Source: an uncultured Christensenellaceae bacterium (GTDB lineage: Bacteria; Bacillota; Clostridia; Christensenellales; Aristaeellaceae). From it: a DNA stretch of 64,000 nucleotides. Below, piece by piece: positions 9,260 through 58,487 of the stretch. Under the pieces are notes generated by a model that ran no database searches, was not told where the DNA came from, and saw only the letters and a program-made list of their open reading frames with translations. Position numbers and translations under genes: made by a program. The stretch's first letter is position 1. Each line of letters begins with the position of its first letter. The stretch spans positions 9,915-73,914 of the forward strand of contig CAJOJQ010000032.1 in assembly GCA_905234985.1 (NCBI GenBank). Direction: 5' to 3'.

Positions 9260-9922
9260 ATGACGGTGAAAAGGAAACGGGTGGCGCTATTGCTTTCACT
9301 GCTTTGCCTGACGGTGTGGACGGGGGCGGCCAGCGCCGCCGTGGCCTGGGGCGACCGGGGGGCGGACGTGACGAAGATCCAGCAGCGCCTGCGGCAATAC
9401 GGCTACATGGACGCTCCGGCGGACGGCATTTACGGCCAGGCCACCTATGAGGCGGTGGTGTGGTTTCAGCGGAAAAACGGTCTGAAAGCCGACGGGGTGG
9501 TGGGGCCTGCCACGGCGGCGGCATTGGGCGTCACCCTGAACGGCGGCAGCGCGGCAGCCGCCAGCGCCAGCGACAGCGAAATCTATACTCTGGCCCGGCT
9601 GGTTCACGCCGAGGCCCGGGGCGAACCCTATTTGGGCAAGGTGGCGGTGGCGGCGGTGGTGCTGAACCGGGTGCGCTCCGCTTCCTTCCCCAACACCATC
9701 AGCGGGGTGATTTACCAGGCCGGGGCCTTTGACTGCGTGGCGGACGGCCAAATCAATTTGGCCCCGGACAATGATTCCCTCCGCGCCGCCCGGGACGCCA
9801 TGAACGGCTGGGACCCCACCGGCGGATGCGTGTATTACTACAACCCCGCCACCGCCACCAGCGCCTGGATCTGGAGCCGGGAGGTCAGATTGAGCATTGG
9901 GGCGCATAGCTTTGCCGTATGA
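9260..9922 (+). CDS. sleB: Spore cortex-lytic enzyme SleB (PG-binding domain plus Hydrolase_2 domain)
   Basis: Signal peptide, PG-binding repeat, then ARLVHAEARGEPYxGKVAVAAVVLNRV...VIYQxGAF motifs. Confidence 0.88.
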   Translation: MTVKRKRVALLLSLLCLTVWTGAASAAVAWGDRGADVTKIQQRLRQYGYMDAPADGIYGQATYEAVVWFQRKNGLKADGVVGPATAAALGVTLNGGSAAAASASDSEIYTLARLVHAEARGEPYLGKVAVAAVVLNRVRSASFPNTISGVIYQAGAFDCVADGQINLAPDNDSLRAARDAMNGWDPTGGCVYYYNPATATSAWIWSREVRLSIGAHSFAV

Positions 9923-9930
9923 CACATTAA

Positions 9931-10054
9931 GCAGGTAGGAGGTAGGAAGTAGGAGGTAGGAGGTTTATTTTGCTCAAAAGTCCAAGCAAGGTGCCGGGTT
10001 CCTTTGGTAGACTATATAAAACTTCCTACCTCCTACCTCCTACTTCCTACCTGC
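9931..10054. repeat. Heptad-armed long hairpin element, GTAGGAG family (copy H1)
   Basis: Left arm gcaGGTAGGAGGTAGGAAGTAGGAGGTAGGAGGT; right arm is its near-complement. About 56-nt loop ending in GACTATATAAAA. Confidence 0.85.
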
Positions 10055-10086: not shown

Positions 10087-11382
10087 ATGGCAAAAAGCCG
10101 TTTTTCCTTGGGCGTTTTCGCCCTGCTTTTAGCGTTGGCGGCGGTGTCCGGGCTGGCGTTCCGGTTCAAGGGCGAGCGGGACGGGTACGCGGCGCGTCTG
10201 CGGGAGGTATACGACGGGACGGTGCTTTCGGCCCTTAGGCAGATGGAAGATATGGAATTGGCCTTAGGCAAGGCCTTGCTGTCCCAGGCCGACGGGGCGG
10301 AAAACCAATACCTGAATCAGGTGAGCGCCGGGGCGGCCCAGGTGCAGCGCAGTTTGTCCCTGCTGCCCCTGTCCCACACCGCCACCCAGCGGGCCATGAA
10401 GTTCGCCAATCAGGCGGCGGATTACAGCGGCGCGCTGCTCCGGGCGGGGGAAATCACCCCGGAGGACGCGGCGAAGCTGAACAGCCTCCTGTCCGCATGC
10501 CGGGAATACGCTTCCGCCCTTGCCCAGAGCCGGGAAAGCCTGACGGCCCAGGCCAGCGCGGGGACCGCCGCCTTTTATCCCGTGGGCAGCGAACCGGAAG
10601 CCCCGGCCTATGACAGCGCCGTGAGCTACCCCACCTTGATTTACGACGGGCCTTTTTCCGACGCCCGGCAGACCGGCCAGGCCCTGGCCTTGGGCACCAA
10701 GGTGATCTCCCAGGAGGAGGCTATGACCATCGCCCGGGATTTCGTGGGCGACCGGGTGAAGCGGGCCGCGCCGGGGGCGTCCACCGGCGGCAGCATCCCC
10801 TGCTGGGGCGTGACGCTGGATTTGGGCGACGTGACCCTCCAGGCCGCCGTGACCCGGCAGGGCGGCAAAATTCTGTGGATGGCCCCGGACGCGGCGGATT
10901 TCCCCGTGGAAAAGAGCGTGGAGGAATGCAGGGAAAACGCCCTGCTGTTCCTGGAAGCCCGGGGCTTTCAAAGCATGAAAGCCACCTACTTCCAGGTATA
11001 TCAGGGCGTTGCGGTGATTTCCTTCGCCGCCTCCCAGGGCGATACGCTGCTGTACCCCGATCTCATCAAGGTGCAGCTGCGCATGGACACCGCCCAGGTG
11101 GTGGGCGTCGAGGCCCGGAATTACTGGCAGAACCATGCCGCCCGGGGGCTGCTGGCCCCCACCCTCACCGAGGAGGAGGCGAGAAGCCGCGTGGGCCAGC
11201 GCTTGAACGTGCAGTCCGGTCAGCTGTGCCTGATCCCCACGGAAAGCGGCGAAAGGCTGTGCTACGAGTTCAAGGGCGAGTTCGGCGGCCACACCTATCT
11301 GAGCTACATCAGCGCCCTGGACGGAAAACAGGAGGAGCTGTTAAAAGTGGTGGAAAGCGATACGGGGCTGGAAACAGTGTAA
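10087..11382 (+). CDS. ypeB: Germination protein YpeB (PepSY domains)
   Basis: Directly follows sleB. N-terminal TM segment. ATG at 10087 preceded by GAGGTG. Length and position are typical of YpeB. Confidence 0.82.
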   Translation: MAKSRFSLGVFALLLALAAVSGLAFRFKGERDGYAARLREVYDGTVLSALRQMEDMELALGKALLSQADGAENQYLNQVSAGAAQVQRSLSLLPLSHTATQRAMKFANQAADYSGALLRAGEITPEDAAKLNSLLSACREYASALAQSRESLTAQASAGTAAFYPVGSEPEAPAYDSAVSYPTLIYDGPFSDARQTGQALALGTKVISQEEAMTIARDFVGDRVKRAAPGASTGGSIPCWGVTLDLGDVTLQAAVTRQGGKILWMAPDAADFPVEKSVEECRENALLFLEARGFQSMKATYFQVYQGVAVISFAASQGDTLLYPDLIKVQLRMDTAQVVGVEARNYWQNHAARGLLAPTLTEEEARSRVGQRLNVQSGQLCLIPTESGERLCYEFKGEFGGHTYLSYISALDGKQEELLKVVESDTGLETV

Positions 11383-50569: not shown

Positions 50570-50655
50570 GAGTTGAGAGTTGAGATTTATATGGCCGGAA
50601 TATCCAGAATCTGCAATGTGCGGACCGCAATATCTCAACTCTCCGCTCTCAACTC
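50555..50655. repeat. Heptad-armed long hairpin element, GAGTTGA family (copy H6, loop inverted)
   Basis: AGAGTTGAGAGTTAAGAGTTGAGAGTTGAGAT / ATCTCAACTCTCCGCTCTCAACTC. The left arm overlaps the last 5 codons and the stop of the phosphatase gene. Confidence 0.8.
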
Positions 50656-50711
50656 GCCTTATCAAAAAGGACTGCCGCAACCGCGACAGCCCTTTTCATG
50701 ATATGCTTGTT

Positions 50712-52214: not shown

Positions 52215-52322
52215 GATGCACGATCCTTTCCAAATGAGAATAAAAAGAAGAGCCCGCCGAAGCAAAGCTCCCTCAAACCAATGCGACAAAACGATTTCGA
52301 TCCAAAACGGAAAGGATCGTCG

Positions 52323-52488
52323 CCTCTGTCCTTTTGCCTGAGAGATTAGCCCTTTTCGGGCTTTGCACCTTCGGCCCCCGGTCTTTCTCCGGGCTTCTCC
52401 AGAGTGTCATCCGCATACAGTCCCGCCGCCCTTGGCAGCGCCTGAGAGTGTTGCTCCTTCGGCTATCCTTTGGGATATTTCCTGCATG
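52323..52488 (-). ncRNA. Tandem glycine riboswitch
   Basis: Minus strand, aptamer I: CAUGCAG-GAAA-UAUCC..GGAUA-GCCGAAGGAGCAAC-ACUCUCAGGC..GGGACUGUAUG. Aptamer II: CUCUGGAGA..GCCGAAGGUGCAA..CUCUCAGGCAAAAGGACAGAG. Upstream of an AGCS transporter gene. Confidence 0.8.
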
Positions 52489-52506: not shown

Positions 52507-52535
52507 ATTTTACTATACAGAAAAACACCGGTCAA
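52507..52535 (-). promoter_or_regulatory. Promoter of the glycine-riboswitch transcript
   Basis: Minus strand TTGACC-17 nt-TAAAAT. Confidence 0.55.
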
Positions 52536-52554
52536 GAGGAAAAGGCCCTTGACC
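52521..52554 (-). terminator. Intrinsic terminator after the ATPase cassette
   Basis: Minus strand GGTCAAG-GGCCTTTTCCT-CTTGACC-GGTGTTTTT. Confidence 0.7.
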
Positions 52555-52608
52555 GATGTTTTTTCCCTGTACTGCGCTGTCATTGAGGCGTCGCGGACGA
52601 TACCGCGA

Positions 52609-53037
52609 TCAGAAAGCATGCTTCAGGGAAAACTTGGTTTTCCCGTCGGCGGTCGAGCTGTCCAACTCCATCATATCTTCCTGGCTGAGCATCAGCCCCG
52701 TTGGGTTTCTGCCGATCAGGATATACTGATTTTTCCCATCCGTGGCAATATACCAGCGCATGGCGTCGTCCAGAAGAATGTCGGCGTTGTCGATAATAAA
52801 CAGTTTTTCTTTTGAGCGCTTGATGGAGGTCTTATATCCCTTTTTCTGGTCAAGATAATTGAAGCACAGGATGGACTTGTTTTCCGCCGCCATTTCCTGA
52901 AGGAAGGAATAAACGGCGGATTTCCCTGTGCCCGAATCCCCGATGATAAAGGTGACGTTGTTTTCGATGGCAAAATCGACTTCAAACGACGTATGATTCG
53001 TTTGAATCCGGTCAAACAGGATCGGTTTCATTTTCAT
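52609..53037 (-). CDS. Minimal P-loop ATPase (142 aa)
   Basis: Walker A GDSGTGKS and Walker B KLFIIDNAD. 26-nt overlap with the upstream gene. Confidence 0.65.
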   Translation of the reverse strand: MKMKPILFDRIQTNHTSFEVDFAIENNVTFIIGDSGTGKSAVYSFLQEMAAENKSILCFNYLDQKKGYKTSIKRSKEKLFIIDNADILLDDAMRWYIATDGKNQYILIGRNPTGLMLSQEDMMELDSSTADGKTKFSLKHAF

Positions 53038-53467
53038 TCGCCCACCACGCCTTCAATTCCTCGTAGGAGTCGATCTCACGAACGCCCTTTTTGCCGCCGA
53101 TCTTCACTTTCTCCATTTCAAACGAAATGAGCGGGTAATCGCAGTATACGTTTCCGCACGGCAAAGCGTAAATCACATCCAGCGCGTTGTCGCCGCATTC
53201 CCGGATATCAAACACCTTGTCCTGATTGTACAGCACGTTCAGGGCCGTCTTGCATCCGGTGGAAAGCTTATCAATGTTTAACGCCATACCGTCGAACCTT
53301 GAACGGATTTGGAACGGACTGAGCAGCTCGGAATGGTCGATCCTTCGGATGATTTCCGCCGCCCTGCCGTCAAGACGCAGCGCGGTGCTTTTGTTAAAGA
53401 ACAGATCGTTTAGAGCAACCAGCTCCAAACTTTTGGGCACCGTCCCTTTTTTATAAACCGTGATCAT
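53012..53467 (-). CDS. ABC-signature-like small protein (recalls DUF4869; unverified)
   Basis: ...DKLSTGCKTALNVL...VFDIRECGDNALD..., i.e. an LSGGQ-like motif plus an acidic Walker-B/D-loop-like motif without a P-loop. Confidence 0.55.
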   Translation of the reverse strand: MITVYKKGTVPKSLELVALNDLFFNKSTALRLDGRAAEIIRRIDHSELLSPFQIRSRFDGMALNIDKLSTGCKTALNVLYNQDKVFDIRECGDNALDVIYALPCGNVYCDYPLISFEMEKVKIGGKKGVREIDSYEELKAWWANENETDPV

Positions 53468-54157
53468 TTACAAGCCCGCCCCTTCAAAAGCTTCTTTCAG
53501 CACAGAACGCTCCACCAATAGCTTTGCCTTTTCATCCGCGCTTATTCTATGGGCGTCAAGTCCGCAGTGATCGTCGCTTTGGCGGCCGTCCCGTTCACAG
53601 CAGGAAAGGATAAAGCAATCGCCCAGGCGGGTCTTGCCCGTTTCAAAACCCGTGTTCCGCGTGATTTCAAACAGCAGCTTTGCCGCGATTTGTTCAGAAT
53701 TCTTGCTTTCATACGCGTCAAACGCTTCCCTGAACGCCTGTAAATCAGCGCCGTTTCCACCGGACGAAAAAAGCCTGATAAACAGCTTTCTGGCGTTCAG
53801 CAGCGCCTGCCTTTTATCCCGCAGAGGATCTCCCGGCGCAAATATCCACTGTTCCAGCAATTCAAAGGATAAAAGCGCGTATTCAAAGGAATGCAGACGG
53901 ATGGCGCGGACATTGCTCTTTCCCGCGATACAGGCGTTTAGGCGTTTTGTTTCTCTGAGTACGTCGGGATTATCCAGCGCCGCGTCCATGATCAGATAGT
54001 ATTCATTTCCGTCGGCTGTGATTTTTTCCGCGGCTTTTCTCAATCTTGTGTTGCTGCCCTTGGTTTCCACGGTAAAATCCGGGAAAAGAACGCCGAAAAC
54101 CGCGTGCCAGAACTGATAGCCCGATTTGCTGTCCTCACACCATAAGAACTTACGCAT
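53468..54157 (-). CDS. Hypothetical protein with Toprim-like N-terminal signature
   Basis: Start placed at the ATG at 54157 (MRKFLWCEDSKSGYQFW...YYLIMDAALDN...), which overlaps the purA stop as ATGCGTAA. The longer track ORF would overlap purA by about 125 nt. Confidence 0.5.
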   Translation of the reverse strand: MRKFLWCEDSKSGYQFWHAVFGVLFPDFTVETKGSNTRLRKAAEKITADGNEYYLIMDAALDNPDVLRETKRLNACIAGKSNVRAIRLHSFEYALLSFELLEQWIFAPGDPLRDKRQALLNARKLFIRLFSSGGNGADLQAFREAFDAYESKNSEQIAAKLLFEITRNTGFETGKTRLGDCFILSCCERDGRQSDDHCGLDAHRISADEKAKLLVERSVLKEAFEGAGL

Positions 54158-55433
54158 TTTTCCGATAAATGATCTCTTCCCGCTTGGGGCCGTTGGAGAG
54201 CATGGTGAGGGGACATTCGATTTCCTTTTCGATGAATTCCACGTACTGGCGGCATTTTTCAGGCAGGTCGGCATAATTGGTCAGGCCCCGGATATCCTGC
54301 TTCCAGCCGGGCAGCGTGACGTAGACGGGCTTGGCCTTATCCAGCAGGGGGGTAACGGGGAAATCCCGCACTTCTTTGCCGTCGATCTCGTAGGCCACGC
54401 ACACCTTGATTTCATCCAGGTAGCCCAGCACGTCCAAATTGGTCATCACGCAGTCCGTTGCCCCCTGCACCATGCAGCCGTAGCGGGTAGCCACCGCGTC
54501 GAACCAGCCCACGCGCCGGGGACGGCCCGTTTTCGCGCCGTACTCGCCCGCGTCGCCGCCGCGCTTGCGCAGCTCTTCCGCCTCGTCCCCGAACAGCTCG
54601 GTGGTGAAGGGGCCTGCGCCCACGCAGGAGGAATAGGCCTTGGTCACGGCAATCACCTGTTCAAAGGCGGTCACCGGCAGGCCCGCGCCCACCGCGCCGA
54701 AGCCTGCCAGGGGCGAGGAGGAGGTGGTGAAGGGAAAAATGCCGTGGTCCGGGTCCCGCAGGGTCCCCAGCTGGCCTTCCAGCAGGATGCGCTTGCCCTC
54801 CTTCACGGCCTTGTGCAGGTACTGGGCCACGTCGCCCACCATGGGTTCGATCTGCTTGGCCAAAGCGTAATACTTTTCGGTCAAAGCGTCCACGTCCAGC
54901 AGGGGCTTGTGGTACAGGCTTTCCAGCATGGCGTTTTTCAGCTTCGCCGCGTTGGTCAGCCGCTGGCGCAAAATCTCCTTGTCCAGCATCTGGCACACCT
55001 GCACGCCGATCTTCATGTACTTGTCCCCATAAAACGGCGCGATGCCGCTCTTGGTGCTGCCGAAGGAGGCCTTGCCAAGCCGTTCTTCCTCGTAGCAGTC
55101 GAAAGCCACGTGGTATTCCATCAGCACCTGCGCCCGGTCGGAGATCAGCAGCTTGGGCGCAGGCACGCCGCGATCCGTCAGCGTTTTGATTTCGCTGAGC
55201 AGCGCCTCGATGTCCAGCGCCACGCCGGGGCCGATCACGTTCAGCACGTGGCTGTGGCACGCCCCGGAGGGCAGCAGATGCAGGGCGAACTTGCCGTAGT
55301 TGTTGATGATGGTGTGGCCCGCGTTGGCCCCGCCCTGAAACCGGATCACGATGTCGCTGTTCTCCGCCAACATATCGGTGATTTTGCCTTTTCCTTCGTC
55401 GCCCCAATTGGCGCCCACGATTGCCCGTACCAT
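54150..55433 (-). CDS. purA: Adenylosuccinate synthase
   Basis: ...GANWGDEGKGKITD...GGANAGHT... hallmark motifs. Confidence 0.95.
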   Translation of the reverse strand: MVRAIVGANWGDEGKGKITDMLAENSDIVIRFQGGANAGHTIINNYGKFALHLLPSGACHSHVLNVIGPGVALDIEALLSEIKTLTDRGVPAPKLLISDRAQVLMEYHVAFDCYEEERLGKASFGSTKSGIAPFYGDKYMKIGVQVCQMLDKEILRQRLTNAAKLKNAMLESLYHKPLLDVDALTEKYYALAKQIEPMVGDVAQYLHKAVKEGKRILLEGQLGTLRDPDHGIFPFTTSSSPLAGFGAVGAGLPVTAFEQVIAVTKAYSSCVGAGPFTTELFGDEAEELRKRGGDAGEYGAKTGRPRRVGWFDAVATRYGCMVQGATDCVMTNLDVLGYLDEIKVCVAYEIDGKEVRDFPVTPLLDKAKPVYVTLPGWKQDIRGLTNYADLPEKCRQYVEFIEKEIECPLTMLSNGPKREEIIYRKNA

Positions 55434-55484: not shown

Positions 55485-55781
55485 TTATATTGCCATTTCG
55501 TCGTATGCGAAGCTGTCAGCATACATGGTTTCCGGGGCGATGTCGATTTCCCCGTCCATCCATGTGACCACGCCGTGGTCTACCTGAACCGCCCGGAACA
55601 CGTTCTCATCCCGCAGGGGCTGAAACGCTGGAAAGGAAAGCAGCGGGGTCACGTCGTACAGCCGCTTTTCGCCGGGAGAAAACGTAACAAGCAGCATCCC
55701 ATCCGCCAAAGGTTTTACGGCAAGCACCCTTTTGTCCGTACCTGCGGTTCCAGCGTATGCGATTCCGTTTAGAATGTACAT
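55485..55781 (-). CDS. DUF2442-like protein
   Basis: 98 aa. ...VKPLxDxxLLVTFSxGExRLYDV...IDIAPE... pattern. Confidence 0.75.
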   Translation of the reverse strand: MYILNGIAYAGTAGTDKRVLAVKPLADGMLLVTFSPGEKRLYDVTPLLSFPAFQPLRDENVFRAVQVDHGVVTWMDGEIDIAPETMYADSFAYDEMAI

Positions 55782-55793
55782 ACAGAAAACCTC

Positions 55794-56060
55794 CTATTCC
55801 AAGGGCTTGATTTTGTCAAAAGGTTCGTTCCGTACTGCTTTATTCCAGGCGGCATATGCTTCCTCCTCGTGCATTGCCAGCCACCCGATCACCATTTTTA
55901 ACTGCCTGACGGGCAGGGAACCCGCCAACAGCTCTCCATCAATTCCGACGGATGCTTCATATTCCCCATAGTAGACATGCACATGGGGCTTATGATGCTG
56001 TTTGGTATCGTCGAACAGCATTTTGATGATGATTCCAGCGAATCGGCTCAGTTCCGGCAT
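55794..56060 (-). CDS. DUF4160-like protein
   Basis: GGAGGAAAAAA-ATG. MPELSRFxGIIIxMxxxDxxxHHxPHVHVxYGEYEA... Confidence 0.75.
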   Translation of the reverse strand: MPELSRFAGIIIKMLFDDTKQHHKPHVHVYYGEYEASVGIDGELLAGSLPVRQLKMVIGWLAMHEEEAYAAWNKAVRNEPFDKIKPLE

Positions 56061-56095
56061 TTTTTTCCTCCACAATTATTCAGTAGGGGCAATCT

Positions 56096-57304
56096 TTACA
56101 GCACATCCACGATTCTACGAACGGCTTCCCTCGTCTTTTCCAGCGTATTGAACGCGGTCAACCGGAAGTACCCCGCGCCGCTGGGGCCGAAGCCCTCGCC
56201 GGGGGTGCCCACCACGTGGGCTTTATCCAGCAGCAGGTCGAAGAAATCCCAGCCGGAGAGGCTGCCGGGGGTTTTGAGCCAGATATAGGGGGCGTGTTCT
56301 CCGCCGAACACCCGCATGCCCGCGCTGGCGAGGCCCTCCCGGATCACCTTGGCGTTTTCCCGGTAGTAGGCGATGTTTTCCATGATCTGCTTTTGGCCCG
56401 CCTCGGTGTACACGGCGGCGGCGGCCTTCTGGGTCACGTAGGACACGCCGTTGAACTTGGTGGCCTGGCGGCGGCCCCAGATGCGGTTCAGGGAAACGCC
56501 GTCGAACACCAATTCCTTGGGCACCACGGTGTAGGCGCAGCGGGTGCCGGTAAAGCCCGCCGTCTTGGAGAAGGAGCAGCACTCCACGGCGCACTGCTTC
56601 GCGCCGGGAATTTCATAAATGCTCCGGGGAACGTCGGGGCCGCTGATAAACGCCTTGTAGGCCGCGTCGTACACGATCAGGGCGTTGTGGGCCTGCGCCC
56701 AGTCCACGAAGACCTTTAACTGCTCCTTGGTCAGCACCGTGCCGGTGGGGTTGTTGGGGTAGCACAGATAAACAACGTCAATATCATCCTCGGGCAGCGG
56801 GGGCACGAAGCTGTTTTCCGCCGTGCAGGGCAGATAATTGAGGTTCGTCCACTGGCCGTTTTCATAAGCGCCTAAGCGGCCCGCCATGGCGTTGGAATCC
56901 ACGTAAACGGGATAGACCGGGTCGGTCACGGCGATTTTGGCGTCCGGGCCGAACAGCTCCTGCAAATTGCCCACGTCGGACTTGGCGCCATCAGAGACAA
57001 AAACTTCATCCCGGCCCATTTCGATGCCCCGGCTGGCATAATCCCCGGCGATGATGGCGTCGATGAGCCAGTCGTAGCCGAAATCCGGGCCGTAGCCGTG
57101 GAAGCCGGACAGGGTGCCCATTTCATCGGCGGCGACTTTCATGGCGTCCACCACGGCGGGCACAAGGGGCAGGGTCACGTCGCCGATACCCAGGCGCAAA
57201 ATGTCGGCGTCGGGATGGGCAGCGGAATATTCCTTCACGCGCTTGGCGATCTCGGCAAATAAGTATCCGGCGGGCAGCGCGGCAAGGTTCTGGTTGATTT
57301 TCAT
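56096..57304 (-). CDS. dapL: LL-diaminopimelate aminotransferase
   Basis: [23 protein letters not shown]... and the ...[15 protein letters not shown]... PLP-lysine motif. Confidence 0.88.
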
Positions 57305-57455: not shown

Positions 57456-58487
57456 TCAGCAGAATATTTCTTTAAAGATATTTGCCAAACTGTTTGCTAA
57501 CTTATCGACGGCACGATCCACCCGAAGGAGTATAAACAATCGCAAACGAATGACATCAATCAATAAGCATACCAGAAAAATTCCCAGTGAGCAACCTAAA
57601 ACCAAGGGAATCAAAATCCATGGGCTTGAGGATGCAATCCAGGCAAAGGAGCCGCAAAAATAATAGTCCCAAATTACAAAATGTAAATGAATCAAATATA
57701 CGCCAAATGCGGAAGGAGCAAAAAAACGAATCAACTTTTGACATTTTTCATTGAAAGATAATGTGCAAAAAAAACAAATACAGCACACTGAAGCCAGTAA
57801 CATGGTAGGGCTAATATTATTTATAAGCTTTTCGGGAATAACTGGTGAAAATATTTTCCAAAGCCAAGTAAGTATAATACATCCAAAGAAAATGAGAATC
57901 CACATAACAGGTTTCATTTTATTATAAATCTTGTTGATCTTTATCCAAGCGCCAATTACATACAGGAAGACCAGCCATGCGAAGCTTTTACCACCATTCA
58001 TCTCGAAAGTGTCTTTAATTGTCCCGAACACAGCAAGAAGGAATAGAGTGATTGCCAACATAGTACATTCTTTTTTTGATAAGTTGCGCAGTAGTTTATT
58101 CAGCCAGGGGATAACAAAAAACAAGCCTGTATAAGCACGAAAATACCAATAATACCCCGTTAAAACAGGAAAACCAGATTTGAGCAATGTTTTTAACGAT
58201 ACCGGTTCTTGTGACGGCAATCTAAATAAATAAAAAATGAAAGTAATTCCGAAATTGTAAATAAATACCTGTAGCCAAAATAAAATATATTTTCGGTAAC
58301 GATAGCGCCTTTCCTGCTCCGTATAGCCGACAAATCCACTAATGAGGCCAAAGCAATTAACAGCGCAATAAGCACCAATTTCTTGCAGCCATGCCAATGA
58401 ATAATTTAAATCCTTTGCATTATTTAATACTCCGCCTTGCCCCAATACATGTAAAATCAAGATCAGGAACATGGAGTATAAACGCAA
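57456..58487 (-). CDS. Acyltransferase family 3 (O-acyltransferase), N-terminus interrupted by (GACA)9; coordinates are the track ORF (TTG start)
   Basis: 10-TM acyltransferase_3-like protein. The frame continues upstream through NSGIDLL and the repeat to a TAG at 58544..58542. AT-rich relative to its neighbours by eye. Confidence 0.7.
   Translation of the reverse strand: MRLYSMFLILILHVLGQGGVLNNAKDLNYSLAWLQEIGAYCAVNCFGLISGFVGYTEQERRYRYRKYILFWLQVFIYNFGITFIFYLFRLPSQEPVSLKTLLKSGFPVLTGYYWYFRAYTGLFFVIPWLNKLLRNLSKKECTMLAITLFLLAVFGTIKDTFEMNGGKSFAWLVFLYVIGAWIKINKIYNKMKPVMWILIFFGCIILTWLWKIFSPVIPEKLINNISPTMLLASVCCICFFCTLSFNEKCQKLIRFFAPSAFGVYLIHLHFVIWDYYFCGSFAWIASSSPWILIPLVLGCSLGIFLVCLLIDVIRLRLFILLRVDRAVDKLANSLANIFKEIFC

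Follow-up and report, generated by a model that had tools for sequence, protein, structure and literature searches.

What are three small genes doing at the very end of purA? The question is raised by a 64,000-nucleotide stretch (the window) of contig CAJOJQ010000032.1 from an uncultured Christensenellaceae bacterium, in which a tightly packed trio of open reading frames, here called P1, P2 and P3, lies directly downstream of purA on the minus strand. A reading made from the letters alone (the sequence-only reading) had taken the trio for a candidate defence module, composed of a Toprim-like protein and an ABC-like ATPase split into two polypeptides and "welded onto" purA. We followed the trio with family-wide searches, structure models and a survey of its genomic contexts. 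It is a conserved, translationally coupled and horizontally acquired unit. Taking all lines together, we lean towards a conflict module, most likely directed against phages, in which the logic of OLD, PARIS and AbiL/RloAB systems would be spread over three polypeptides.

54157..53468, minus strand: P1, open reading frame of 229 residues directly downstream of purA
53467..53012, minus strand: P2, open reading frame of 151 residues
53037..52609, minus strand: P3, open reading frame of 142 residues

The three genes form a conserved unit

The three frames of 229, 151 and 142 residues, their overlap with purA, the TAAATG junction and the overlap of P2 with P3 were all confirmed on the sequence. The P1 start codon (54157-54155) is located inside the last codons of purA, and P1 shares 8 nt with the purA 3' end. 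P2 starts directly after the P1 stop codon, so that the two genes abut, and P2 overlaps P3 by 26 nt in the window (53012-53037). These frames are real genes, because hundreds of homologues have the same length and because other species keep the order of the genes and their overlaps. At E <= 1e-3, we obtained 143, 525 and 356 homologue clusters for P1, P2 and P3, respectively, full-length and of the same size; nearly all P1 homologues have 229-230 residues, and the start of the 229-residue frame is the start of the family.

A scan with the P2 alignment over one genome per GTDB species (~185,000 representatives) identified relatives in 189 species. The locus counts given throughout refer to 80 loci fetched out of these, all open reading frames of which were searched with hidden Markov models. 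All 80 loci have P2 and P3 side by side, 73 of them with an identical overlap of 11 nt, which answers positively whether the pair co-occurs elsewhere. P1 is directly upstream of the pair in 65 of the 80, with no gap or a 4-nt overlap in 55; it is absent from 15 loci and truncated in nine. One goat-reticulum Clostridia metagenome-assembled genome (MAG) belonging to the window species (L017) carries a 100% identical P2, the DNA being 97% identical. The hosts are mainly Oscillospiraceae, Ruminococcus and Lachnospiraceae of the gut and rumen, and the spread of the cassette to Anaerolineaceae and to one Bacteroides MAG implies lateral transfer. No match to the cassette was found among 72,556 plasmids; one IMG/VR contig matched it, and a phage record gave one weak match. 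The cassette is essentially chromosomal.

A sister architecture joins P3-like and P1-like halves

In L030, L033 and L050, and in part also in L046 and L029, the gene after a canonical DUF4869 gene encodes a protein of ~320 residues. The N-terminal half of this protein matched the P3 profile over residues ~6-133 with E-values of 1e-9 to 1e-12. The C-terminal half matched the P1 family (E = 6.6e-13 in L050, 1.2e-3 in L030 and ~1e-3 in L033) and bears the motifs TEDSNSGYEFF, ADAAALGS and PESFEW, as in P1. The family thus occurs in two architectures, P1 / P2 / P3 and P2 / (P3-P1 fused). By these profile matches, the fusion independently indicates a joint action of P3 and P1, and its order appears to be ATPase-then-Toprim, as in OLD and merged AriAB. 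Neither DUF4869 nor the C-terminal domain of the fused protein is covered by a PADLOC 2.0 model.

Two other candidates were set aside. P0504 and P0471 were rejected as fusion evidence, being probable assembly chimeras or pseudogenes with a common N-terminus and differing tails. Together with P0462 and P0459 they share the same P1-like N-terminus (KYLWTEDTGAGLHFW...) followed by unrelated C-termini, the tail being GIDA in P0471 and the C-terminal half of AAA_21 in P0504; all four are probably chimeric assemblies or decayed genes. Kinship with Menshen (NsnABC) was likewise rejected: a fused relative matched NsnB weakly (E = 1.9e-5), and no Menshen domains were found in P1-P3 with Pfam. In Menshen, NsnA is described with ParB-DUF262, and NsnC with inactive-PIN and nuclease domains (PMC12065111).

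The cassette and its genomic neighbours

The sequence-only reading was right about a junction with purA as far as the window species is concerned, and this junction is peculiar to that one species. purA stands beside the cassette only in window-species contigs (L009-L017); it is near the cassette in none of the other 79 species loci, and the trio is therefore far from being universally placed beside purA. In L001-L003 and L098/L099, the trio is located between hsdS and hsdR of type I restriction-modification (R-M) operons. The neighbours are SocA_Panacea, an AAA_15/21 ATPase and HipA in L006, and serine recombinases, RE_NgoBV and an NB-ARC NTPase in L100. Further neighbours include AAA_21+RloB pairs, Abi_2, a helicase-PLD protein, an AAA-ATPase_like-PDDEXK_9 protein and a type III Res subunit.

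We surveyed the 135 genes that immediately flank the cassette in about 70 species. Pfam assigned ResIII to 7 of them, DEAD to 7, PRiA4_ORF3 to 5, AAA_21 and PLDc_2 to 4 each, AEP-TOTE to 3 and phage integrase to 2. PADLOC (E <= 1e-10) gave PbeA for 6 of the 135, type IV restriction endonuclease (mREase_IV) for 5, mad3 for 4, type I restriction endonuclease, AbiLi, AriA and PDC-S06 for 2 each, and type III restriction endonuclease and JetD for 1 each. Such a patchy, island-linked distribution is as expected for a defence or conflict module. The proposal of a defence-type module gained from these data: the trio is conserved in defence islands, is not tied to purA, and has relatives in which P3 and P1 are fused.

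Several loci differ from the window in gene content. The R-M-embedded copies contain an extra gene of 130-163 codons without a Pfam match between hsdS and P1 (L001 5418-5909; L098 7558-7950; L018 8862-9260), which is absent from the window. In L029 (9541-11329), a P1-less P2-P3 pair lies between two near-identical canonical DUF4869 genes (9541-9978 and 10892-11329), with an AAA_21 + RloB pair just upstream and a 443-residue open reading frame downstream; this arrangement looks like an insertion into, or a duplication of, the DUF4869 gene in an AbiL-like locus. In L045 (8407-10403) and L048 (1755-3614), AAA_21 ATPases followed by proteins of 205 and 170 residues without a Pfam match are found directly downstream of P1-less P2-P3. 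The small proteins may be alternative effectors of P2-P3, or the pairs may be independent AbiL-like systems.

P3, a putative minimal ATPase core

All motifs quoted in the sequence-only reading are present: FLWCEDSKSG and YYLIMDAALDN in P1, LSTGCK and VFDIRECGDNALD in P2, and GDSGTGKS and LFIIDNAD in P3. In P3, the Walker A motif corresponds to G33-S40 (GDSGTGKS) and the Walker-B-like motif to LFIID83-N84-A85-D86. The family alignment showed G33, G36, G38 and S40 to be invariant and K39 to be conserved in at least 90%; D83-N84-A85-D86, which follows a hydrophobic strand, and Q104-Y-I-I-I-G109-R110-N111-P112 are also invariant. The stretch from Walker A to the Walker-B-like motif of P3 measures only 38 residues, too few for a helical subdomain or a signature motif. 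QYIIIGRNP stands at the H-loop position, where R110 replaces the H-loop His. At the position of the ABC catalytic Glu, P3 has N84, and the fused relatives keep D-E or E-E.

Pfam matches of P3 were weak and centred on the P-loop (AAA_22, AAA_15, SMC_N, ABC_tran). The AAA_15 score of 18 bits did not reach the cutoff of 32.1, and AAA_21 gave no Pfam match. PADLOC matches were weak as well (AriA, PtuA, GajA and LmuB at E of 1e-3 to 1e-5; also ATPase-Toprim_I-B), NCBIfam matches were confined to generic ABC transporter equivalogs well below their cutoffs, and the best PDB profile match was the retron Ec83 ATPase (E = 0.06). An hhalign comparison with an ABC transporter ATPase covered residues 4-140 with a probability of 82% and E = 1e-5. 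The description of P3 as an ABC/OLD-type P-loop protein without a signature stands, its best matches being the weak ones to AAA_15, ABC_tran, AriA, PtuA, GajA and Ec83. By its motifs, P3 is a stripped ABC-type core in which the P-loop is present and the signature absent.

P2, a divergent DUF4869 protein

P2 matches Pfam DUF4869 (PF16163), as had been suggested, at 37.6 bits where the cutoff is 28.9 (E = 2.3e-9, residues 34-99), and its homologues already bear a precomputed PF16163 match. The canonical DUF4869 proteins of the surveyed loci score 190-210 bits and have an LSGGVKT motif; P2 represents a divergent branch. Common to both are L-S-x-G-x-K-T, then a hydrophobic strand, and C-G-(D)-N. 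Canonical DUF4869 has Asn in place of the Walker-B-like acidic residues. P2 itself carries LSTGCK and VFDIRECGDNALD and has no P-loop. No paper on DUF4869 or PF16163 was found in the searchable library.

The AlphaFold2 (AF2) model of P2 (predicted local distance difference test, pLDDT, 85.3) places LSTGCK at the N-terminus of helix 70-80. Strand 84-87 comes next, then a helix and a further strand, and the chain ends with a hairpin and a C-terminal helix. ABC/SMC/Rad50 heads show this same order, namely signature, Walker B strand, D-loop helix and H-loop strand. The top 50 Foldseek matches of P2 in the PDB are almost all ABC/SMC/Rad50 nucleotide-binding domains. Support is moderate for P2 as a degenerate ABC-like domain that would keep only the signature-like motif. 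A single ABC domain divided between two proteins, as proposed earlier, is probably an oversimplification: the P2 model does resemble an ABC head without a P-loop, but P2 looks like a whole degenerate domain, and P3 has a Walker-B-like strand of its own.

P1, a putative effector

P1 consists of an N-terminal alpha/beta domain (residues ~1-100), a helical middle region and a Cys cluster (C181, C186, C187, C198). The N-terminal domain contains the acidic residues E8/D9, D58, D62 and E92. Invariants of the close family include W6, C7, E8, D9, G13, D58, N63, R68, E69, F91, E92, C181, C186 and C198. An exhaustive profile search of a 1.8-billion-protein library returned 469 representatives (E <= 1e-3). 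D58 and E92 do not vary among 66 diverse members, in which E8, D9, C181, C186 and C198 reach at least 90% conservation. The AF2 model (pLDDT 90.6) has the N-terminal topology b1-a1-b2-a2-b3-a3-b4, with E8/D9 after b1, D58 after b3 and S90-F91-E92 after b4; beyond this domain, the chain forms a helical region and then a lower-confidence Cys-rich loop. In the model, this arrangement would suit a metal site like that of Toprim, and the Cys cluster may bind zinc.

Direct searches did not confirm an assignment of P1 to Toprim/DUF4435: neither a fold match nor a Pfam match reached significance. Two of the 66 diverse members match Pfam DUF4435 (best E = 6.4e-6), and no DUF4435 match was detected in 20 broad-family members scanned singly. 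With regard to the fold, the b-a-b-a-b-a-b topology and the placement of E8 and D58 agree with Toprim, but the Foldseek matches are not significant, Ts OLD being found at rank 14 with E = 0.11.

The cassette within the window

The remaining features of the locus are as follows.

55433..54150, minus strand: purA, stop codon within AATGCGTAA
54150..54157, minus strand: overlap of the purA stop and the P1 start, sequence ATGCGTAA
52520..52562, minus strand: intrinsic terminator (fold energy, hairpin and U-run), end of the purA-P1-P2-P3 transcription unit
52535..52507, minus strand: promoter-like site TTGACC-17-TAAAAT (promoter scan), belonging to the glycine-riboswitch/symporter unit
52316-52412: glycine riboswitch, single aptamer, ahead of the Na+/alanine symporter (55.8 bits)

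A promoter scan of the junction detected no promoter-like site between purA and P1, which implies that the cassette is apparently read from purA by read-through or coupled expression. The purA transcript would thus apparently drive cassette expression in this genome. The predicted terminator after the third gene was borne out: ~50-90 nt past the P3 stop codon, a G+C-rich hairpin of 14 bp precedes a U-run, and the fold energy is -41.4 kcal/mol versus -24.6 +/- 3.2 in shuffles (z = -5.2). The hairpin and the promoter-like site of the next unit overlap (52507-52562).

The cassette is AT-richer than its flanks, as had been noticed. G+C is 0.47-0.51 in P1, P2 and P3 versus 0.62 in purA, the aminotransferase and the symporter, and G+C at third codon positions (GC3) is 0.58-0.65 across the cassette versus 0.82-0.88 in the flanking genes. 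On base composition, this reads as a clear sign of a foreign origin.

Other parts of the neighbourhood vary too. A ~330-bp segment (55770-56101) with a 93-residue open reading frame (55794-56075, minus strand; sequence MWRKKMPELSRF...HHKPHVHVYYGEYE...) is located between the aminotransferase and a 98-residue DUF2442 gene (55485-55781). It is absent from the conspecific contigs L009, L010 and L017, whose flanks join directly. GC3 in the 93-residue frame and the DUF2442 gene is 0.60-0.64, below that of the flanks, and the two may form a strain-variable two-gene module. Between 57400 and 58800, G+C falls to 0.35-0.38, versus a window mean of 0.565; this segment holds a 343-residue multi-pass membrane open reading frame (57456-58487, minus strand) and, from its composition, looks like a separate horizontally acquired segment. 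In the conspecific strain L010 (6726-10209), three genes for a GGDEF response regulator, a helix-turn-helix (HTH) response regulator and a histidine kinase are inserted between the symporter and the low-molecular-weight (LMW) phosphatase gene. The insertion is missing from the window at ~50570-50700, which indicates that the whole neighbourhood is strain-variable.

Proposed function and alternatives

We consider it fairly probable, from the analysis as a whole, that the trio is a horizontally acquired conflict module, most likely anti-phage, with OLD/PARIS/AbiL-RloAB logic distributed over three polypeptides. In the proposed mechanism, the LS(T/G)G.K motif of P2 would complete the Walker A ATP site of P3. 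The pairing is proposed because the signature is missing from P3 and the P-loop from P2, and because the two genes are inherited together in every case, at a fixed overlap. P2-P3 might share a single asymmetric, composite site for ATP, or they might be the parts of a split domain, which would then dimerise. The ATPase head so formed would hold P1 inactive until a phage cue changes its nucleotide state, whereupon P1 would be freed or activated, and the P1 acidic cluster (E8/D9, D58, E92) would cleave DNA or RNA to abort the infection. P1 is lost or truncated in 24 of the 80 loci while P2-P3 stay, which fits a toxic gene.

A number of results weigh against this proposal. The same P2-P3 pairs, retained without P1 in 15 of the 80 loci and with a truncated P1 in nine, indicate that the pair can persist alone. 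With N84 in place of the catalytic Glu, P3 may bind ATP and not hydrolyse it. The best Foldseek match of P2, the Smc3 head, has E = 3.3e-3, and all P2 matches are sub-threshold with TM-scores of 0.3-0.4. Nor did sequence profiles favour an ABC head: P2 alignments gave no such support against PDB sequences, and hhalign of the P2 alignment with ABC transporter ATPase and AAA_21 proteins was not significant. For P1, neither the single sequence nor profiles produced a meaningful match in Pfam, NCBIfam, PHROGs, PADLOC or PDB sequences, and Foldseek searches of its model against the PDB and BFVD returned nothing at E <= 1e-3, only generic Rossmann and receiver folds. Its N-terminal topology is equally compatible with a receiver-like fold, and hhalign with the RloB protein of L029 was negative (probability 0.1%). 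A PADLOC 2.0 scan, one of the checks that the sequence-only reading had put forward, came back without any model recognising the cassette, P3 giving P-loop-level matches only and P1 and P2 nothing. Many cassette contexts, moreover, are without obvious defence character.

A more ambitious version of the proposal would make the DUF4869 cassettes a new anti-phage family with three-gene split and two-gene fused forms. One composite ATP site would be assembled from the signature-less P3 core and the signature-only P2 pseudo-domain. No smaller OLD/PARIS-like sensor would be known, and it would control a divergent nuclease that resembles Toprim and binds zinc. Where the cassette is lodged between hsdS and hsdR, it would serve as a backup to type I restriction and might, like PARIS, sense anti-restriction proteins. 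Taken as a whole, this version is speculative and we would not expect all of it to hold.

Among the alternatives, a selfish toxin-antitoxin (TA) or addiction module survives best, and we still rate it as rather unlikely. P1 would be the toxin and P2-P3 its ATP-dependent neutraliser, stabilising islands and R-M operons with no dedicated anti-phage role. Small translationally coupled genes, a patchy distribution, low GC3 and association with recombinases would all be natural for such a module, as would the 24 loci in which P1 is absent or truncated beside an intact P2-P3, a pattern fitting a toxic gene here as well; AAA_21 itself is annotated as an AbiEii/type IV TA toxin domain. TA and abortive-infection defence overlap, however, and the two are hard to separate on this evidence. 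A single IMG/VR match and none in 72,556 plasmids reveal no obvious stabilising of mobile replicons, and restriction and defence genes make up most of the neighbours.

Slightly less likely still is an accessory role in R-M or DNA transactions, whereby a RecF/RecR- or SMC-like head with a Toprim-and-zinc protein would serve in DNA-end processing or as a modulator of type I R-M. The recurrent location of the cassette between hsdS and hsdR speaks for this role, and so do the Smc3 and Rad50 heads as best fold matches of P2 and the Toprim-like topology of P1 with its conserved Cys cluster, a combination for which RecR offers a parallel. Most loci, the window included, nevertheless have no R-M genes beside the cassette, the NCBIfam RecR/RecF models match neither P1 nor P2, and occurrence in 189 of ~185,000 species representatives is far too patchy for a repair function. 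That the trio might be a housekeeping partner of purA in purine metabolism is scarcely credible: all contigs of the window species have the P1 ATG within the end of purA, and the genes apparently share a transcript, but purA accompanies the cassette in no other species locus, the composition of the cassette is foreign and its contexts elsewhere are unrelated to purine metabolism, so that the context survey refutes such a link.

If the anti-phage proposal is true, a function would be assigned to the uncharacterised Pfam family DUF4869 and to the P1 family with its 469 distant representatives. The class of ATPase+Toprim defence systems would gain a compact ~1.5 kb addition, of a handy size for structural and mechanistic work. 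Nature would also have tested how far an ABC ATPase can be cut down, or have parts provided in trans, and still gate a nuclease. The locus further shows how such a cassette can be taken up into the transcript of a housekeeping gene, purA, in a Clostridia species of the rumen. Cassettes predicted to act in defence are common; the points of note here are the split design on a small scale and the unassigned family DUF4869.

Comparison with known defence systems

Genetic linkage of ATPase and effector, as in the known systems, is seen in the conserved trio and in the fusions of L030, L033 and L050. No single cassette protein contains a complete AAA_15/AAA_21-type ATPase with Walker A, signature, Walker B and H-loop.

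In PARIS, binding of the trigger by AriA depends on ATP and leads to release of the DUF4435/Toprim protein AriB, which cleaves tRNA with E26 as catalytic residue (PMC11464382). The cassette resembles PARIS in its proposed logic of an ABC-type ATPase with a putatively Toprim-like effector, the parts being separate or sometimes fused (here in the 320-residue relatives), in the weak PADLOC match of P3 to AriA (E = 2.6e-4) and in the two of 66 P1 relatives that touch DUF4435. Both occur in defence hotspots; what PARIS guards against is an anti-restriction protein, and the cassette often lies inside type I R-M loci. The differences are considerable. AriA is a ~55 kDa protein with a signature and coiled-coil insertions, whereas P3 is a 16 kDa protein without a signature; the DUF4869 protein has no PARIS counterpart; and P1, with 229 residues and a Cys cluster, is missed by the DUF4435 model, the AriA and AriB models not being significant.

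AbiL/RloA-RloB likewise combines an ATPase with a small acidic-motif partner and is frequent inside type I R-M loci, and genuine AAA_21+RloB pairs adjoin P2-P3 or canonical DUF4869 in some loci (L029). P1, however, shows no RloB profile similarity, P3 is one third of the size of RloA/AbiLi, and a DUF4869 component is added.

The OLD family (P2 Old, Ts OLD, Gabija GajA) has the ATPase-then-Toprim order that the fused relatives appear to follow; P3 weakly matches GajA and ATPase-Toprim_I-B, and Ts OLD is among the fold matches of P1. An OLD protein is a single chain of 500-600 residues in which the ABC domain is complete and the Toprim domain canonical (E...DxD), whereas the parts of the cassette are split, reduced and ordered P1-P2-P3, and all matches stay below significance.

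With Pfam DUF4869 the kinship is direct, since P2 exceeds the gathering threshold and the LS.G.KT ... F..x.CG(D)N motifs are common to both, the difference being that P2 pairs with a separate P3 and P1 and not with a fused 320-residue protein. The cassette probably works like the OLD/PARIS/AbiL class as a distant relative that is a member of no named system, and most likely a small-scale relation of these defence systems that had not been described.

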